Below are positions 11,493 to 41,326 of a stretch of DNA of 59,744 nt, in pieces. Made by a program: the position numbers and the translations under genes. The stretch's first letter is position 1. The number at the start of each line of letters is the position of its first letter. The notes beneath the pieces were generated by a model, which saw only the letters and a list, made by a program, of their open reading frames with translations, was not told where the DNA came from and searched no databases. Source of the DNA: Escherichia coli (GTDB lineage: Bacteria; Pseudomonadota; Gammaproteobacteria; Enterobacterales; Enterobacteriaceae); NCBI RefSeq assembly GCF_003334255.1, contig NZ_QOWU01000029.1. One strand, given 5' to 3'.

Positions 11493-12450
11493 AGCACTAC
11501 TGAACGCGGGACGTCAGACGTTAATGCTGGAGTTGCAGGAAGCAAGCCGTTTACCGGAACGTCTGGGCGATGATTTTGTTCGCGCCGCCAATATCATCCT
11601 GCACTGTGAAGGCAAAGTGGTGGTTTCGGGAATTGGCAAATCGGGCCACATTGGTAAGAAAATCGCCGCAACGCTTGCCAGTACCGGCACTCCGGCTTTT
11701 TTTGTCCATCCGGCAGAAGCGCTGCACGGCGATCTGGGGATGATCGAAAGCCGCGATGTGATGCTGTTTATCTCTTACTCCGGTGGCGCGAAGGAACTGG
11801 ATCTGATTATTCCGCGTCTGGAAGATAAATCTATCGCGCTGCTGGCGATGACCGGCAAACCGACGTCACCGCTGGGCCTGGCGGCAAAAGCGGTGCTGGA
11901 TATCTCCGTAGAACGCGAAGCCTGCCCGATGCACCTTGCGCCGACCTCCAGCACCGTCAATACCCTGATGATGGGTGACGCGCTGGCGATGGCGGTCATG
12001 CAGGCGCGCGGATTTAATGAAGAAGATTTTGCCCGCTCCCACCCAGCCGGGGCACTGGGCGCTCGCTTGCTGAATAAAGTGCATCATCTGATGCGCCGTG
12101 ACGATGCCATCCCACAGGTGGCGTTAACCGCCAGCGTGATGGATGCGATGCTGGAACTCAGCCGCACCGGTCTGGGGCTGGTGGCGGTATGTGACGCTCA
12201 ACAACAGGTACAAGGCGTCTTTACCGACGGCGATTTACGTCGCTGGCTGGTTGGCGGCGGCGCACTCACCACGCCAGTCAATGAAGCGATGACGGTCGGC
12301 GGCACCACGTTGCAATCGCAAAGTCGCGCCATCGACGCCAAAGAGATCCTGATGAAGCGCAAAATCACTGCCGCACCGGTGGTGGATGAAAACGGCAAAC
12401 TCACCGGCGCAATAAACCTGCAGGATTTCTATCAGGCCGGGATTATTTAA
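11485..12450 (+). CDS. gutQ: D-arabinose 5-phosphate isomerase GutQ (SIS and CBS domains), 321 aa
   Basis: ORF track; SIS-domain motif and tandem CBS domains; start overlaps the srlR stop. Confidence 0.93.
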
Positions 12451-13961
12451 TCCTTCAATCCCAGACGTTTCGCCAGCCGATGCAGGTTGGCGACGTCGGT
12501 TTCCAGCATCCGCGCGCAGGCAGCCCAGTTGTGATGATTTTGTGCCAGTGCCTGACGAATAGTTTCACGCTGGAACGCTTCTGTCGCTTCACGCAGGTTT
12601 TGCTTAACAACGGGCACCGCCGCCACTTCTGGCGTCGGCAACGTCACCTCAGGAAAAGCAAAATGTTGCGCCTCAAGAATCACTTCATCGCCGCTGCGGG
12701 TGGCTCTCGCCAGAACTACCGCCCGATGAATAGCATGTTCCAGTTCGCGCACGTTTCCCGGAAAACTGTAGTGTTGCAGTAAATTTCGCGCTCCGGCACT
12801 TAATACCACGCGGGAGAGCCCCTGCCGCAAACGACACTGCTCGCAGAAATACCCCGCCAGCAGAATGACATCATCGCCCCGCTCACGCAGCGGCGGCACC
12901 GAAAGTGGAAACACGCTCAGGCGATGAAACAAATCGGCGCGGAATCGCCCTGCCAGCACCTCTTCGCGTAAATCGCGGTTAGTCGCCGCCAGCACGCGCA
13001 CATCGACCCGCAAACAACGGTCATCGCCAACGCGCTGAATATCGCCATACTGCAACACCCTCAGCAGCTTGGCCTGCAATGCCAACGACAACTCGCCGAT
13101 CTCATCCAGAAACAGCGTGCCGTTATCCGCCATTTCAAACTTCCCGCTGCGATTACTGATAGCGCCAGTAAACGCTCCTTTCACATGCCCGAACAACTCA
13201 CTTTCCGCCACACTTTCCGGCAGTGCAGCACAGTTGAGATAGACCAGCGGATTCACCGCCCGTGGCGAGGCTTCATGAATCGCTTTCGCCACCAGCTCCT
13301 TACCGGTTCCAGTCTCACCGCTGATCAGGACGTTGAGATCGGACGCCGCCACAATCTCAATCTCTTTTTTCAGTTGCGTCATGCCAGGGGACAAGCCAAT
13401 CATCTGCGTCTGTTTCACCGCTTCAAACGGCGTGGCATCGCCTGGCAGCATATTCTGGCTTTCCAGTTGTTCAATCAGCAACGCATTGCTTAACGCTCCC
13501 GCCGCCAGCGCAGCAATCAGCCGTAGCTCTTCGTCGCTGAAAACATCGAACTGATCGGGCTGCATCCCGTCGAGCGTCAGTGCGCCGATCAGGTTTTGCC
13601 CGGCAAACAATGGCAGACCAACGCAGGCGTGAACCTTCAGACTCTCCTGCCCAGGAATCAAACCGTCATAGGGATCGGGCAATTCGCTGTCTGCGGGAAA
13701 GCGCACCACATCCCCGGCGCGGGCAATCGCTTCCAGCCGTGGATGCCCTTCCAGCGCAAAGCGTCTACCGAGTACATCCTTTGCCAGACCGTCGATGGCA
13801 AGCGGAATAAACTGCCGCGAATCGTAACGTAGCAACGCAGACGCATCGCACTCCAGCACCTGACGTAGCGTGGTGATCAGGCGCTGAAAACGATCCTGGT
13901 GACCAATCCCACGCTGCAATTCGATGGCGATATTCGCCAGCACATCAACGGAAAAACTCAT
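12447..13961 (-). CDS. norR: Sigma54-dependent NO-responsive regulator NorR, about 504 aa; the track ORF is extended to 14036
   Basis: ORF track; GAF domain, AAA+ sigma54-activator core ([14 protein letters not shown]) and C-terminal HTH. Confidence 0.95.
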
Positions 13962-13973
13962 CTTTGCCTCACT

Positions 13974-14029
13974 GTCAATTTGACTATAGATATTGTCATA
14001 TCGACCATTTGATTGATAGTCATTTTGAC
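13974..14029. promoter_or_regulatory. Three NorR enhancer sites (GT-N7-AC) in the norR-norV intergenic region
   Basis: gtcaatttgac (13974-13984), gtcatatcgac (13995-14005) and gtcattttgac (14019-14029) seen directly. Confidence 0.75.
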
Positions 14030-14084
14030 TACTCATTAATGGGCATAATTTTATTTATAGAGTAAAAACAATCAGATAAAAAAC

Positions 14085-14100
14085 TGGCACGCAATCTGCA
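14085..14100 (+). promoter_or_regulatory. Sigma54 (-24/-12) promoter for norVW
   Basis: TGGCACgcaatcTGCA about 50 bp upstream of the norV start codon. Confidence 0.85.
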
Positions 14101-14147
14101 ATTAGCAAGACATCTTTTTAGAACACGCTGAATAAATTGAGGTTGCT

Positions 14148-15587
14148 ATGTCTATTGTGGTGAAAAATAACATTCATTGGGTTGGTCAACGTGACTGGGA
14201 AGTGCGTGATTTTCACGGCACGGAATATAAAACGCTGCGCGGCAGCAGCTACAATAGCTACCTCATCCGCGAAGAAAAAAACGTGCTGATCGACACCGTC
14301 GACCATAAATTCAGCCGCGAATTTGTGCAGAACCTGCGTAATGAAATCGATCTGGCGGATATCGATTACATCGTGATTAACCATGCAGAAGAGGACCACG
14401 CTGGGGCGCTGACCGAACTGATGGCACAAATTCCCGATACGCCGATCTACTGTACTGCCAACGCTATCGACTCGATAAATGGTCATCACCATCATCCGGA
14501 GTGGAATTTTAATGTGGTGAAAACTGGCGACACGCTGGATATCGGCAACGGCAAACAGCTCATTTTTGTCGAAACACCAATGCTGCACTGGCCGGACAGC
14601 ATGATGACTTACCTGACAGGCGACGCGGTGCTGTTCAGTAACGATGCTTTCGGTCAGCACTACTGTGACGAGCATCTGTTCAACGATGAAGTGGATCAGA
14701 CGGAGCTTTTCGAGCAGTGCCAGCGTTACTACGCCAATATCCTGACGCCGTTCAGCCGCCTGGTAACGCCGAAAATTACCGAGATCCTGGGCTTTAACTT
14801 ACCAGTCGATATGATAGCGACCTCCCACGGCGTGGTCTGGCGCGATAACCCGACGCAAATTGTCGAGCTGTACCTGAAATGGGCGGCTGATTATCAGGAA
14901 GACAGAATCACCATTTTCTACGACACCATGTCGAATAACACCCGCATGATGGCTGACGCTATCGCCCAGGGGATTGCGGAAACCGACCCACGCGTGGCGG
15001 TGAAAATTTTCAACGTCGCCCGAAGCGATAAAAACGAAATCCTGACCAATGTCTTCCGCTCAAAAGGCGTGCTGGTCGGCACTTCGACGATGAATAACGT
15101 GATGATGCCGAAAATCGCCGGGCTGGTGGAGGAGATGACTGGTTTACGCTTCCGTAACAAACGCGCCAGTGCTTTCGGCTCTCACGGCTGGAGCGGCGGT
15201 GCGGTGGATCGTCTTTCCACGCGCCTGCAGGATGCGGGTTTCGAAATGTCGCTCAGCCTGAAAGCCAAATGGCGACCAGACCAGGACGCTCTGGAGTTAT
15301 GCCGTGAACACGGTCGCGAAATCGCCCGTCAGTGGGCGCTCGCGCCGCTGCCGCAGAGCACGGTGAATACGGTAGTTAAAGAAGAAACCTCTGCCGCCAC
15401 GACGGCTGACCTCGGCCCACGGATGCAGTGCAGCGTCTGCCGGTGGATTTACGATCCGGCAAAAGGCGAGCCAATGCAGGACGTTGCACCAGGAACGCCG
15501 TGGAGTGAAGTCCCGGATAACTTCCTGTGCCCGGAATGCTCCCTCGGCAAAGACGTCTTTGACGAACTGGCATCGGAGGCAAAATGA
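14148..15587 (+). CDS. norV: Anaerobic nitric oxide reductase flavorubredoxin, 479 aa
   Basis: ORF track; metallo-beta-lactamase-like, flavodoxin and C-terminal rubredoxin (CxxC...CxxC) domains. Confidence 0.96.
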
Positions 15588-16717
15588 GCAACGGCATTGT
15601 GATCATTGGTTCGGGCTTCGCCGCCCGACAACTGGTGAAAAATATTCGCAAACAGGACGCCACTATTCCATTAACCTTGATTGCCGCCGACAGCATAGAT
15701 GAGTACAACAAACCTGACCTCAGCCATGTTATCAGTCAGGGGCAACGTGCCGACGACCTTACCCGCCAGACGGCGGGTGAATTTGCCGAGCAGTTTAATC
15801 TGCGCCTGTTTCCGCACACCTGGGTGACGGATATCGATGCCGAAGCCCATGTGGTGAAAAGCCAGAATAATCAGTGGCAATACGACAAGTTAGTGCTGGC
15901 AACCGGTGCCAGCGCCTTTGTCCCGCCTGTGCCTGGGCGTGAGTTAATGCTGACGTTAAATAGTCAGCAAGAGTATCGCGCCTGTGAAACGCAACTGCGG
16001 GATGCCCGACGCGTGTTGATTGTTGGCGGTGGTTTGATTGGTAGCGAACTGGCGATGGATTTTTGTCGTGCAGGCAAAGCGGTCACGCTAATCGACAACG
16101 CTGCCAGTATTCTGGCGTCGTTAATGCCACCGGAAGTAAGCAGCCGCTTGCAGCATCGGTTGACGGAGATGGGTGTTCATCTGCTGTTGAAATCTCAGTT
16201 GCAGGGGCTGGAAAAAACGGATTCTGGCATTCTGGCAACGCTGGACCGCCAGCGTAGCATCGAAGTGGATGCGGTAATTGCCGCCACCGGACTGCGCCCG
16301 GAAACCGCCCTGGCACGACGCGCCGGGCTGACGATTAATCGCGGCGTTTGCGTCGATAGTTATCTGCAAACCAGTAATACCGATATTTACGCGCTGGGCG
16401 ATTGCGCGGAAATTAACGGTCAGGTATTGCCGTTCCTCCAGCCGATTCAACTTAGCGCGATGGTGCTGGCAAAAAATCTTCTCGGCAATAACACGCCGCT
16501 GAAACTCCCGGCGATGCTGGTGAAAATCAAAACGCCGGAATTACCGCTGCATCTGGCAGGCGAAACCCAGCGTCAGGATTTACGCTGGCAAATTAATACC
16601 GAACGCCAGGGAATGGTGGCGCGCGGCGTTGACGATGCTGACCAGCTTCGCGCCTTTGTGGTCAGTGAGGATCGGATGAAAGAGGCATTTGGATTGTTGA
16701 AAACATTGCCGATGTAG
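15584..16717 (+). CDS. norW: Flavorubredoxin NADH reductase, 377 aa
   Basis: ORF track; FAD/NAD-binding GxGxxG motifs; start overlaps the norV stop. Confidence 0.95.
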
Positions 16718-31521: not shown

Positions 31522-31645
31522 CAGGCATTCCTCAGGTGATTGTCATTTTTGACGAAAACATGCCGATGAAATGTCATTTTCGACACTCATCGACACGCCC
31601 ATCCCCAAACAGGCGTAACGCCTGCAAAACGGGCAAAGCCTCAGC

Positions 31646-35936: not shown

Positions 35937-36009
35937 TAAAATTCTAAATCTCCTATAGTTAGTCAATGACCTTTTGCACCGCTTTGCGGTGCTTTCCTGG
36001 AAGAACAAA

Positions 36010-38088
36010 ATGTCATATACACCGATGAGTGATCTCGGACAACAAGGGTTGTTCGACATCACTCGGACACTATTGCAGCAGCCCGATCTGGCCTCGCTGT
36101 GTGAGGCTCTTTCGCAACTGGTAAAGCGTTCTGCGCTCGCCGACAACGCGGCTATTGTGTTGTGGCAAGCGCAGACTCAACGTGCGTCTTATTACGCGTC
36201 GCGTGAAAAAGACACCCCCATTAAATATGAAGACGAAACTGTTCTGGCACACGGTCCGGTACGCAGCATTTTGTCGCGCCCTGATACGCTGCATTGCAGT
36301 TACGAAGAATTTTGTGAAACCTGGCCGCAGCTGGACGCAGGTGGGCTATACCCAAAATTTGGTCACTATTGCCTGATGCCACTGGCGGCGGAAGGGCATA
36401 TTTTTGGTGGCTGTGAATTTATTCGTTATGACGATCGCCCCTGGAGCGAAAAAGAGTTCAATCGTCTGCAAACATTTACGCAGATCGTTTCTGTCGTCAC
36501 CGAACAAATCCAGAGCCGCGTCGTTAACAATGTCGACTATGAGTTGTTATGCCGGGAACGCGATAACTTCCGCATCCTGGTCGCCATCACCAACGCGGTG
36601 CTTTCCCGCCTGGATATGGACGAACTGGTCAGCGAAGTCGCCAAAGAAATCCATTACTATTTCGACATTGACGATATCAGTATCGTCTTACGCAGCCACC
36701 GTAAAAACAAACTCAACATCTACTCCACTCACTATCTTGATAAACAGCATCCCGCCCACGAACAGAGCGAAGTCGATGAAGCCGGAACCCTCACCGAACG
36801 CGTGTTCAAAAGTAAAGAGATGCTGCTGATCAATCTCCACGAGCGGGACGATTTAGCCCCCTATGAACGCATGTTGTTCGACACCTGGGGCAACCAGATT
36901 CAAACCTTGTGCCTGTTACCGCTGATGTCTGGCGACACCATGCTGGGCGTGCTGAAACTGGCGCAATGCGAAGAGAAAGTGTTTACCACTACCAATCTGA
37001 ATTTACTGCGCCAGATTGCCGAACGTGTGGCAATCGCTGTCGATAACGCCCTCGCCTATCAGGAAATCCATCGTCTGAAAGAACGGCTGGTTGATGAAAA
37101 CCTCGCCCTGACCGAGCAGCTCAACAATGTTGATAGTGAATTTGGCGAGATTATTGGCCGCAGCGAAGCCATGTACAGCGTGCTTAAACAAGTTGAAATG
37201 GTGGCGCAAAGTGACAGTACCGTGCTGATCCTCGGTGAAACTGGCACGGGTAAAGAGCTGATTGCCCGTGCGATCCATAATCTCAGTGGGCGTAATAATC
37301 GCCGCATGGTCAAAATGAACTGCGCGGCGATGCCTGCCGGATTGCTGGAAAGCGATCTGTTTGGTCATGAGCGTGGGGCTTTTACCGGTGCCAGCGCCCA
37401 GCGTATCGGTCGTTTTGAACTGGCGGATAAAAGCTCCCTGTTCCTCGACGAAGTGGGCGATATGCCACTGGAGTTACAGCCGAAGTTGCTGCGTGTATTG
37501 CAGGAACAGGAGTTTGAACGTCTCGGCAGCAACAAAATCATTCAGACGGACGTGCGTCTAATCGCCGCGACTAACCGCGATCTGAAAAAAATGGTCGCCG
37601 ACCGTGAGTTCCGTAGCGATCTCTATTACCGCCTGAACGTATTCCCGATTCACCTGCCGCCACTACGCGAGCGTCCGGAAGATATTCCGCTGCTGGCGAA
37701 AGCCTTTACCTTCAAAATTGCCCGTCGTCTGGGGCGCAATATCGACAGCATTCCTGCCGAGACGCTGCGCACCTTGAGCAACATGGAGTGGCCGGGTAAC
37801 GTACGCGAACTGGAAAACGTCATTGAGCGCGCGGTATTGCTAACACGCGGTAACGTGCTGCAGCTGTCATTGCCAGATATTGTTTTACCGGAACCTGAAA
37901 CGCCGCCTGCCGCAACGGTTGTCGCCCTGGAGGGCGAAGATGAATATCAGTTGATTGTGCGCGTGCTGAAAGAAACCAACGGCGTGGTTGCCGGGCCTAA
38001 AGGCGCTGCGCAACGTCTGGGGCTGAAACGCACGACCCTGCTGTCACGGATGAAGCGGCTGGGAATTGATAAATCGGCATTGATTTAA
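36010..38088 (+). CDS. fhlA: Formate hydrogenlyase transcriptional activator FhlA (sigma54-dependent), about 692 aa; the track ORF starts at 35974
   Basis: ORF track; GAF domains, AAA+ sigma54-interaction core ([14 protein letters not shown]) and C-terminal HTH. Confidence 0.95.
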   Translation: MSYTPMSDLGQQGLFDITRTLLQQPDLASLCEALSQLVKRSALADNAAIVLWQAQTQRASYYASREKDTPIKYEDETVLAHGPVRSILSRPDTLHCSYEEFCETWPQLDAGGLYPKFGHYCLMPLAAEGHIFGGCEFIRYDDRPWSEKEFNRLQTFTQIVSVVTEQIQSRVVNNVDYELLCRERDNFRILVAITNAVLSRLDMDELVSEVAKEIHYYFDIDDISIVLRSHRKNKLNIYSTHYLDKQHPAHEQSEVDEAGTLTERVFKSKEMLLINLHERDDLAPYERMLFDTWGNQIQTLCLLPLMSGDTMLGVLKLAQCEEKVFTTTNLNLLRQIAERVAIAVDNALAYQEIHRLKERLVDENLALTEQLNNVDSEFGEIIGRSEAMYSVLKQVEMVAQSDSTVLILGETGTGKELIARAIHNLSGRNNRRMVKMNCAAMPAGLLESDLFGHERGAFTGASAQRIGRFELADKSSLFLDEVGDMPLELQPKLLRVLQEQEFERLGSNKIIQTDVRLIAATNRDLKKMVADREFRSDLYYRLNVFPIHLPPLRERPEDIPLLAKAFTFKIARRLGRNIDSIPAETLRTLSNMEWPGNVRELENVIERAVLLTRGNVLQLSLPDIVLPEPETPPAATVVALEGEDEYQLIVRVLKETNGVVAGPKGAAQRLGLKRTTLLSRMKRLGIDKSALI

Positions 38089-38124
38089 CTGCAAATTGCC
38101 GGACAGATCTGCCTGTCCGGCATA

Positions 38125-38478
38125 CTATTCATGAGGTTTTTTCGGACGATATTTTTCCGGCAGTTCTGGCACCGGACGCTTGTCATCGATGAGATGACGC
38201 ACGGTTAAGATCGGATGACGCCACAGCATTCTCGGCCCGGCCCAACGCATAATCTGTTTCATCTCTTCACGCTTTGCAGGCTGGTAACAGTGCACCGGAC
38301 ACTGCTTACAGGCTGGTTTCTCTTCGCCGAACACACATTTATCCAGCCGCTTTTGCGCGTAAACAAACAACGCCTCGTAATGCTCCGGCTCCGCTGACGC
38401 CTGCGGGCATTTCGTTTGATAAAGATCGATCATTTTTTTAATCGTCAGTTTTTCACGAGAGATACGCTTGCCGGACAT
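38125..38478 (-). CDS. ygbA: Nitrous oxide-stimulated promoter family protein YgbA, 117 aa
   Basis: ORF track; cysteine-containing small protein between fhlA and mutS. Confidence 0.85.
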   Translation of the reverse strand: MSGKRISREKLTIKKMIDLYQTKCPQASAEPEHYEALFVYAQKRLDKCVFGEEKPACKQCPVHCYQPAKREEMKQIMRWAGPRMLWRHPILTVRHLIDDKRPVPELPEKYRPKKPHE

Positions 38479-38495
38479 GCTGCCTCCACCTCATT

Positions 38496-38518
38496 AAGAT
38501 GTATTTATATTACATCTT
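38496..38518. promoter_or_regulatory. NsrR-type operator palindrome just upstream of ygbA
   Basis: aagatgtattt-a-tattacatctt is a near-perfect 11-1-11 inverted repeat about 18 bp upstream of the ygbA start. Confidence 0.7.
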
Positions 38519-38764
38519 AATCTTAAAGGGCACTATGACTCCAAAGAAGAAGGGTTAGCCAACCGATACAATTTTGCGTACTTGCTTCATAAGCATCACG
38601 CAAAAGCTGCAAAACAGCATCTTTCCCGGAACCAGCATCAAGAACTCGCCGTTCGCTTCTTCCCCTGAAATGATTAACTCCGGTATCATGTGCGCCTTAT
38701 GTGATTACAACGAAAATAAAAACCATCACACCCCATTTAATATCAGGGAACCGGACATAACCCC

Positions 38765-41326
38765 ATGAGTGCAATAGAAAATTTCGACGCCCATACGCCC
38801 ATGATGCAGCAGTATCTCAGGCTGAAAGCCCAGCATCCCGAGATCCTGCTGTTTTACCGGATGGGTGATTTTTATGAACTGTTTTATGACGACGCAAAAC
38901 GCGCGTCGCAACTGCTGGATATTTCACTGACCAAACGCGGTGCTTCGGCGGGAGAGCCGATCCCGATGGCGGGGATTCCCTACCATGCGGTGGAAAACTA
39001 TCTCGCCAAACTGGTGAATCAGGGAGAGTCCGTTGCCATCTGCGAACAAATTGGCGATCCGGCGACCAGCAAAGGTCCGGTTGAGCGCAAAGTTGTGCGT
39101 ATCGTTACGCCAGGCACCATCAGCGATGAAGCCCTGTTGCAGGAGCGTCAGGACAACCTGCTGGCGGCTATCTGGCAGGACAGCAAAGGTTTCGGCTACG
39201 CGACGCTGGATATCAGTTCCGGGCGTTTTCGCCTGAGCGAACCGGCTGACCGCGAAACGATGGCGGCAGAACTGCAACGCACTAATCCTGCGGAACTGCT
39301 GTATGCAGAAGATTTTGCTGAAATGTCGTTAATTGAAGGCCGTCGCGGCCTGCGCCGTCGCCCGCTGTGGGAGTTTGAAATCGACACCGCGCGCCAGCAG
39401 TTGAATCTGCAATTTGGGACCCGCGATCTGGTCGGTTTTGGCGTCGAGAACGCGCCGCGCGGACTTTGTGCTGCCGGTTGTCTGTTGCAGTATGCGAAAG
39501 ATACCCAACGTACGACTCTGCCGCATATTCGTTCCATCACCATGGAACGTGAGCAGGACAGCATCATTATGGATGCCGCGACGCGTCGTAATCTGGAAAT
39601 CACCCAGAACCTGGCGGGTGGTGCGGAAAATACGCTGGCTTCTGTGCTCGACTGCACCGTCACGCCGATGGGCAGCCGTATGCTGAAACGCTGGCTGCAT
39701 ATGCCAGTGCGCGATACCCGCGTGTTGCTTGAGCGCCAGCAAACTATTGGCGCATTGCAGGATTTCACCGCCGGGCTACAGCCGGTACTGCGTCAGGTCG
39801 GCGACCTGGAACGTATTCTGGCACGTCTGGCTTTACGAACTGCTCGCCCACGCGATCTGGCCCGTATGCGCCACGCTTTCCAGCAACTGCCGGAGCTGCG
39901 TGCGCAGTTAGAAACTGTCGATAGTGCACCGGTACAGGCGCTACGTGAGAAGATGGGCGAGTTTGCCGAGCTGCGCGATCTGCTGGAGCGAGCAATCATC
40001 GACACACCGCCGGTGCTGGTACGCGACGGTGGTGTTATCGCATCGGGCTATAACGAAGAGCTGGATGAGTGGCGCGCGCTGGCTGACGGCGCGACCGATT
40101 ATCTGGAGCGTCTGGAAGTCCGCGAGCGTGAACGTACCGGCCTGGACACGCTGAAAGTTGGCTTTAATGCGGTGCACGGCTACTACATTCAAATCAGCCG
40201 TGGGCAAAGCCATCTGGCACCCATCAACTACATGCGTCGCCAGACGCTGAAAAACGCCGAGCGCTACATCATTCCAGAGCTAAAAGAGTACGAAGATAAA
40301 GTTCTCACCTCAAAAGGCAAAGCACTGGCACTGGAAAAACAGCTTTATGAAGAGCTGTTCGACCTGCTGTTGCCGCATCTGGAAGCGTTGCAACAGAGCG
40401 CGAGCGCGCTGGCGGAACTCGACGTGCTGGTTAACCTGGCGGAACGGGCCTATACCCTGAACTACACCTGCCCGACCTTCATTGATAAACCGGGCATTCG
40501 CATTACCGAAGGTCGCCATCCGGTAGTTGAACAAGTACTGAATGAGCCATTTATCGCCAACCCGCTGAATCTGTCGCCGCAGCGCCGCATGTTGATCATC
40601 ACCGGTCCGAACATGGGCGGTAAAAGTACCTATATGCGCCAGACCGCACTGATTGCGCTGATGGCCTACATCGGCAGCTATGTACCGGCACAAAAAGTCG
40701 AGATTGGACCTATCGATCGCATCTTTACCCGCGTAGGCGCGGCAGATGACCTGGCGTCCGGGCGCTCAACCTTTATGGTGGAGATGACTGAAACCGCCAA
40801 TATTTTACATAACGCCACCGAATACAGTCTGGTGTTAATGGATGAGATCGGGCGTGGAACGTCCACCTACGATGGTCTGTCGCTGGCGTGGGCGTGCGCG
40901 GAAAATCTGGCGAATAAGATTAAGGCATTGACGTTATTTGCTACCCACTATTTCGAGCTGACCCAGTTACCGGAGAAAATGGAAGGCGTCGCTAACGTGC
41001 ATCTCGATGCACTGGAGCACGGCGACACCATTGCCTTTATGCACAGCGTGCAGGATGGCGCGGCGAGCAAAAGCTACGGCCTGGCGGTTGCAGCTCTGGC
41101 AGGCGTGCCAAAAGAGGTTATTAAGCGCGCACGGCAAAAGCTGCGTGAGCTGGAAAGCATTTCGCCGAACGCCGCCGCTACGCAAGTGGATGGTACGCAA
41201 ATGTCTTTGCTGTCAGTACCAGAAGAAACTTCGCCTGCGGTCGAAGCTCTGGAAAATCTTGATCCGGATTCACTCACCCCGCGTCAGGCGCTGGAGTGGA
41301 TTTATCGCTTGAAGAGCCTGGTGTAA
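38765..41326 (+). CDS. mutS: DNA mismatch repair protein MutS, 853 aa
   Basis: ORF track; mismatch-binding N-terminus and Walker [10 protein letters not shown]. Confidence 0.97.

Follow-up and report, generated by a model that had tools for sequence, protein, structure and literature searches.

The window, by which we mean the whole 59,744-nt stretch of Escherichia coli DNA that was analyzed (59.7 kb), carries the convergent genes fhlA and ygbA and, next to them, the mutS gene, which diverges from ygbA. An inverted repeat lies at the 5' end of ygbA, in the intergenic region shared with mutS. The genes and features of this locus are as follows.

35974-38088, plus strand: fhlA, open reading frame.
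38125-38478, minus strand: coding sequence of the regulated gene, ygbA (117 aa); an open reading frame annotated as ygbA, with matches to PF11756 and NF007713.
38483-38487, minus strand: Shine-Dalgarno sequence GGAGG of ygbA, read in the sequence, with the site just upstream of it.
38493-38521, no strand assigned: extended 29-bp palindrome (11-7-11), slightly wider than the originally predicted coordinates.
38496-38518, no strand assigned: very probable NsrR operator, the 11-1-11 inverted repeat AAGATGTATTT-A-TATTACATCTT, which reads AAGATGTAATATAAATACATCTT in the ygbA orientation.
38765-41326, plus strand: mutS, open reading frame.

The product of ygbA is a full-length member of the Pfam family PF11756 (YgbA_NO; E-value 1.3e-40, residues 4-106), and it scores 272.4 bits against the NCBIfam model NF007713, for which the cutoff is 234. 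Four cysteines (C48, C57, C60, and C64) are invariant among 81 orthologs and form the motif C-x8-C-x2-C-x3-C. A PDB sequence search with YgbA returned chance-level matches alone and no solved relative.

A 721-bp query around the site has a match in 5420 of the 5426 complete E. coli genomes, and the annotations under this match include flhA/fhlA, ygbA (‘nitrous oxide-stimulated promoter family protein’), and mutS. Across E. coli the region falls into three identity classes (at least 99%, 95-99%, and 90-95%). The 341 bases that extend from inside ygbA to inside mutS, and thus comprise the whole intergenic region, are identical to those of K-12 MG1655; therefore, the sequence at 38496-38518 is the very site to which the published K-12 studies refer. 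Two structural variants of the locus were observed: strains of the 92.5%-identity class, such as E. coli WP5-S18-ESBL-09 (locus L003, positions 131-559), have one more gene, encoding a TOBE domain, in the interval from fhlA to ygbA, and E. coli p4A (L004) carries a deletion of ygbA, the operator, and the 3' end of fhlA, from which the mutS-proximal 240 bp remains.

The 36-bp gap between the convergent stops of fhlA and ygbA is filled by a perfect GC-rich inverted repeat, GCCGGACAG-atctgc-CTGTCCGGC at 38099-38122, which probably terminates transcription in both directions; this repeat was not among the results of the terminator scan, apparently for want of a T-run. On the other side of ygbA, a 44-aa ‘hypothetical protein’ predicted by PGAP (38555-38689, minus strand) was considered as an upstream operon partner of ygbA and rejected. 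PGAP calls this open reading frame in numerous E. coli genomes, the 100%-identical strain G1/2 among them; neither the RefSeq annotation of MG1655 nor the annotations of B2-type strains contain it. The open reading frame has no NCBIfam match and contains a 1-nt deletion in the B2-type E. coli allele and likewise in the allele of E. albertii. Thus it is probably not a real gene.

Direct reading of the window places AAGATGTATTTATATTACATCTT at 38496-38518, where the original prediction had seen a near-perfect palindrome. Read as 11-1-11, the repeat has arms that pair at nine of 11 positions, the mismatches being arm positions 9 and 11 beside the center, and the perfect register is 11-7-11. In this wider register the repeat finder returned perfect 11-nt arms, ATTAAGATGTA (38493-38503) and TACATCTTAAT (38511-38521), which are 100% complementary and 7 nt apart. 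The three extra outer bases of the resulting 29-bp palindrome are specific for the K-12 allele and weakly conserved in the orthologs (positions -2/-1 and 24-26). The predicted spacings are also close to the measured ones, as the site is separated by 17 nt from the ygbA ATG (predicted as about 18 bp) and by 247 nt from the mutS ATG at 38765 (predicted as about 250 bp). The earlier description of the palindrome as lying back-to-back with fhlA was imprecise: ygbA and fhlA are convergent, and the site is found at the 5' end of ygbA, which faces away from fhlA, so that some 408 nt separate it from the stop codon of fhlA.

The palindrome had been assigned to the NsrR operator pattern, and the motif searches bear this out. 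Compared with the degenerate NsrR consensus AAGATGYATTTNAAATRCATCTT, the 23-mer has two mismatches at 22 specified positions, and it is the sole match with three or fewer mismatches in the window; none of 100 dinucleotide-preserving shuffles contained a match to the consensus. We also constructed a symmetric NsrR weight matrix from 25 published sites in the CFT073 list (PMC5320621, Table 4), from which the ygbA site was left out. With this matrix the ygbA site scores 23.1 bits and is the top match in the window, compared with a mean maximum of 12.6 bits and a largest value of 18.5 bits in 30 shuffled windows. This score falls inside the range of bona fide NsrR sites (12.6-32.2 bits). The ygbA palindrome is therefore far beyond chance. 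A literature search for the exact 23-mer as text had no results.

The conservation of the site was analyzed at 80 loci obtained by a YgbA scan with one genome per species. The genera covered include Escherichia, Citrobacter, Salmonella, Enterobacter, Klebsiella, Raoultella, Kluyvera, Lelliottia, Leclercia, Pluralibacter, Phytobacter, Trabulsiella, and Rahnella, among others. In all 80 loci, the best weight-matrix match in the 400 nt upstream of ygbA lies 12-25 nt from the gene start (mostly 15-20). When the upstream regions are anchored at the site, the information content stays near zero between -70 and -20 and again from +35 on, and it reaches 1.4-2.0 bits at positions 1, 2, 6, 7, 8, 11, 12, 15-19, 22, and 23 of the operator. 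Operator positions 1-23 are the sole high-information block in the 140 aligned columns upstream of ygbA, and a G-rich patch at operator-relative positions 31-34, in the Shine-Dalgarno region, is kept across the orthologs. The orthologous pattern in the ygbA orientation is A-A-n-n-n-G-T-A-n-n-A-T-n-n-A-T-G-C-A-n-C-T-T. Since the flanks are saturated with change and the operator is conserved, we conclude that the operator is held by selection. The site sits in the 5' regulatory region of ygbA and is conserved together with this gene, as expected for an NsrR operator.

Because the motif match, the positional conservation in 80 genomes, and published NsrR regulation and binding all agree, we are highly confident that NsrR, an NO-sensing repressor of the Rrf2 family, has its operator for the ygbA promoter of E. 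coli K-12 at 38496-38518, and the same lines of evidence support the original placement of YgbA in the NO-stress regulon. The nsrR (yjeB) gene is present in E. coli K-12 and lies outside the 59.7-kb window. The ygbA operator is already known, and its interpretation as an NsrR site is already established. Rodionov et al. described E. coli NsrR (YjeB) as a NO-sensitive repressor that controls hmp, ytfE, and ygbA via a common inverted repeat (PMC1274295). According to the earlier K-12 work as cited in PMC5320621, ygbA is known to be regulated by NsrR in this strain (Bodenmiller & Spiro 2006), and its promoter was bound by NsrR in a ChIP-chip experiment (Partridge et al. 2009). Derepression of ygbA in E. 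coli nsrR mutants is likewise reported (Bodenmiller & Spiro 2006). For the CFT073 strain, Mehta et al. predicted an 11-1-11 site at ygbA (PMC5320621, Table 4) and found this gene among those upregulated during nitrate respiration or by nitrate/NO (PMC5320621).

The orthologous sites also allow us to propose where the ygbA promoter lies with respect to the operator. The following elements are predicted by comparison of orthologs.

38507-38512, minus strand: putative -10 hexamer TAATAT of ygbA, at operator positions 7-12 in the ygbA orientation.
38530-38535, minus strand: putative weak -35 hexamer TAGTGC, 17 bp upstream of the -10 hexamer.
38500, minus strand: predicted transcription start of ygbA, an A located 7 nt after the -10 hexamer, which gives a 22-nt leader.

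Among the 81 orthologous sites, T7, A8, and T12 are invariant and A11 is found in 99%, so that the upstream half contains TAnnAT. Position 12 is the central spacer, for which the NsrR matrix has no preference (0.28/0.22/0.22/0.28), yet T occupies it in 100% of ygbA sites. At position 11, where A dominates in ygbA sites, NsrR sites favor T (0.80). In the ygbA orientation, the downstream half matches NsrR half-sites well (AAnnTGCATT when read on the opposite strand). A conserved TTG (G in 93%) stands exactly 17 bp upstream of T7 among neighboring columns that are almost information-free, and the predicted start base at 38500 is A in 96% of orthologs. The -35 region of K-12 keeps just the T and the G of the orthologous TTG. 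A simple sigma-70 consensus scan of positions 38050-38850 found no promoter for either ygbA or mutS, which fits the very weak -35 hexamer; the ygbA promoter is not obvious from the K-12 sequence alone.

The simplest reading of this pattern is a putative sigma-70 promoter of ygbA whose -10 hexamer would lie within the operator. Both positions penalized in the matrix score of the ygbA site are -10 positions; the palindrome would thus be merely near-perfect because both of its departures from the consensus are bases that the putative -10 hexamer requires. Such an arrangement suggests promoter occlusion by NsrR at ygbA. An NsrR dimer on 38496-38518 would cover approximately -18 to +5 of the promoter, and the bound repressor would exclude RNA polymerase from it. 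Holo-NsrR carries an Fe-S cluster, and upon nitrosylation of this cluster by NO the protein releases DNA. At ygbA, damage to the cluster by NO would accordingly make NsrR leave the operator, and the gene would be derepressed. Derepression of ygbA takes place alongside that of hmp, ytfE, hcp-hcr, and yeaR-yoaG. One ortholog departs from the common pattern: in the metagenome-assembled Enterobacteriaceae bacterium UBA5654 (L066, 1460-1482) a degraded site, AAGAGGTAACATTCAAGCCTCTT, stands at the usual distance from ygbA and scores 3.9 bits. It has kept TAnnAT and lost the ATGCA core of the downstream half-site, and this ygbA promoter may have escaped NsrR control.

Within E. coli, exact-word 40-mer searches of the 5426 complete genomes gave the following counts for three common operator alleles.

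K-12 allele, also that of the window: AAGATGTATTTATATTACATCTT, 2127 of 5426 genomes.
Intermediate allele: AAGGTGTATTTATATTACAACTT, 1300 of 5426 genomes.
CFT073-type allele: AAGGTGCATTTATATTACAACTT, 1121 of 5426 genomes.

The allele differences are confined to positions 4, 7, and 20, which are the least informative in both the orthologous profile and the matrix, and the matrix scores of the alleles differ by 1-1.5 bits only. The CFT073 allele (PMC5320621, Table 4) is orthologous to the site in the window, shares its position and its invariant core ATTTATATTACA, and differs from it in three bases, one at each of these positions. At positions 4 and 20, the K-12 allele has a symmetric A...T, with perfectly complementary arms, in contrast to G...A in the CFT073 type. 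The symmetric type AAGATG...CATCTT is found in approximately 39% of complete genomes, and the other type, AAGGTG...CAACTT, in approximately 45%. The palindrome looked so clean in the original prediction because the K-12 allele is unusually symmetric.

The ygbA site was detected by NsrR ChIP in K-12 and went undetected in the NsrR ChIP-seq of CFT073, which the authors regard as a probable false negative (PMC5320621). CFT073, the strain in which ChIP-seq missed the site, carries a different operator allele from K-12, and its NsrR protein is described as identical to that of K-12 (PMC5320621). We consider it rather unlikely that the operator polymorphism alters NsrR occupancy and hence the NO threshold for ygbA induction; if true, such a difference in occupancy would explain why K-12 was positive in ChIP-chip and CFT073 negative in ChIP-seq.

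The original prediction further proposed that NsrR occupancy might affect the mutS promoter. The operator would then be shared, and NsrR bound at the site would also repress or modulate the divergent mutS promoter; in line with this, the site is located within the ygbA-mutS intergenic region at 247 bp from the mutS ATG, and the palindrome, when read on the mutS strand, contains TATATT, which resembles a -10 element. However, a divergent mutS neighbor is limited to Escherichia (at 243-246 bp) and Enterobacter-like genera (at 467-492 bp, with an extra small ORF in between). In Trabulsiella, mutS is about 1.2 kb away from ygbA, and in Citrobacter, Salmonella, Klebsiella, Raoultella, and Kluyvera, among many others, there is no mutS within 1.5 kb, although the operator is still found 12-25 nt from ygbA. 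The interval between fhlA and mutS is a hotspot of island insertion, where sitABCD and SPI-1 adjoin ygbA (PMC7232297). Even within Escherichia the last ~125 bp before the mutS ATG are nearly invariant, whereas the operator-adjacent segment 38519-38640 is the most variable stretch, and mutS is mentioned nowhere in the genome-wide NO/NsrR study of CFT073 (PMC5320621). The operator is fixed to ygbA, and mutS adjoins it in a minority of genera and at a variable distance. The proposed effect on mutS is thus unsupported, and we rejected co-regulation of mutS for lack of linkage, as a very improbable reading. As a separate observation, Enterobacter, Lelliottia, Leclercia, and related genera (e.g. L029, L039, L040, L049, and L050) share a short coding region in the space that separates mutS from the ygbA operator, and this region is conserved among them. 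It ends approximately 110 bp upstream of mutS, encodes a peptide with the end ...GKIVIELM.EG.S*, and is absent from Escherichia.

Instead of binding a protein as DNA, the inverted repeat might function at the RNA level, where a hairpin in the 5' leader of ygbA would exert translational control or attenuation. If fully transcribed, the K-12 sequence would form an 11-bp stem with extra pairs touching the Shine-Dalgarno region (-15.8 kcal/mol, z = -3.6 compared with shuffles). However, with the putative -10 hexamer inside the repeat, just the 3' arm would be transcribed. Moreover, covariation between the arms is lacking among the 67 distinct orthologous sites, and it is specific bases in each half-site that are invariant instead. 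Watson-Crick pairing is kept in 18 of the 67 sites for the pair 4/20, in 40 for 3/21, in 41 for 5/19, in 32 for 10/14, and in 24 for 11/13. Arms that lack covariation while individual bases are fixed are the signature of a protein site. Compensatory changes were not found, for example at the pair 4/20, and the structured leader was rejected; we hold it to be slightly less probable still than the effect on mutS. Least credible of all, with next to no probability, is a chance AT-rich palindrome or a site of another regulator without NsrR function: the region is indeed AT-rich and short inverted repeats are frequent in promoter regions, but the consensus was matched in 0 of 100 shuffles, the matrix score lies above every shuffle maximum, the conservation in 80 genomes with randomized flanks is specific for position and base, and NsrR-dependent regulation and binding have been published (PMC5320621, PMC1274295, and PMC2884951).

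The NsrR operator of ygbA carries little weight as a discovery, as ygbA is a founding member of the E. coli NsrR regulon and the site is the K-12 operator itself. What is added here is a phylogenetic footprint that ties the operator to ygbA and away from mutS, a proposed explanation of the imperfect palindrome by a -10 hexamer within one half-site and the central base, and the description of three common E. coli operator alleles that vary at non-critical positions only.

Elsewhere in the window, two tRNA genes on the minus strand at its start (148-221 and 228-317) are the only Rfam matches at the gathering threshold in 59.7 kb. The norR gene and the divergent norV-norW genes are located at about 12447-16717, approximately 22 kb from the ygbA operator. 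NorR with norV-norW is the other dedicated NO-sensing system of E. coli. The second-best NsrR-type 11-1-11 match in the window, AACATGCCGATGAAATGTCATTT at 31557-31579, scores 16.9 bits, a value that is not independent, as the site is in the matrix training set. This match falls between the genes hycA and hycB, 36-58 nt before the start of hycB, and is the reverse complement of the CFT073 hycB site, which lies under the second most significant NsrR ChIP-seq peak (PMC5320621).

Among the known NsrR operators, we compared the ygbA site with that of E. coli ytfE, AAGATGCATTTAAAATGCATCTT, which is the best consensus match in the CFT073 table. The two sites have in common the 11-1-11 architecture and the outer half-site bases AAGATG...CATCTT, and both operators are located directly upstream of a small NO-stress gene that is derepressed by NO or by the loss of NsrR. 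In contrast to the ytfE site, the ygbA site has one half-site in which two inner positions depart from the consensus (plus strand TATT, as opposed to AAAT), and it has T/A at positions 7 and 17, where the ytfE site has C/G. The matrix scores are 23.1 bits for ygbA and 32.2 bits for ytfE, and the departures of the ygbA site from the consensus coincide with the putative -10 hexamer. The ygbA gene of Salmonella enterica (L027 and L030) resembles that of the window in that an NsrR-type site precedes its ATG by 19 nt, and its mRNA is upregulated 31.8-fold in an nsrR mutant (PMC2884951). The divergent neighbor of ygbA in Salmonella is sitABCD and the SPI-1 island, whereas in the window it is mutS.
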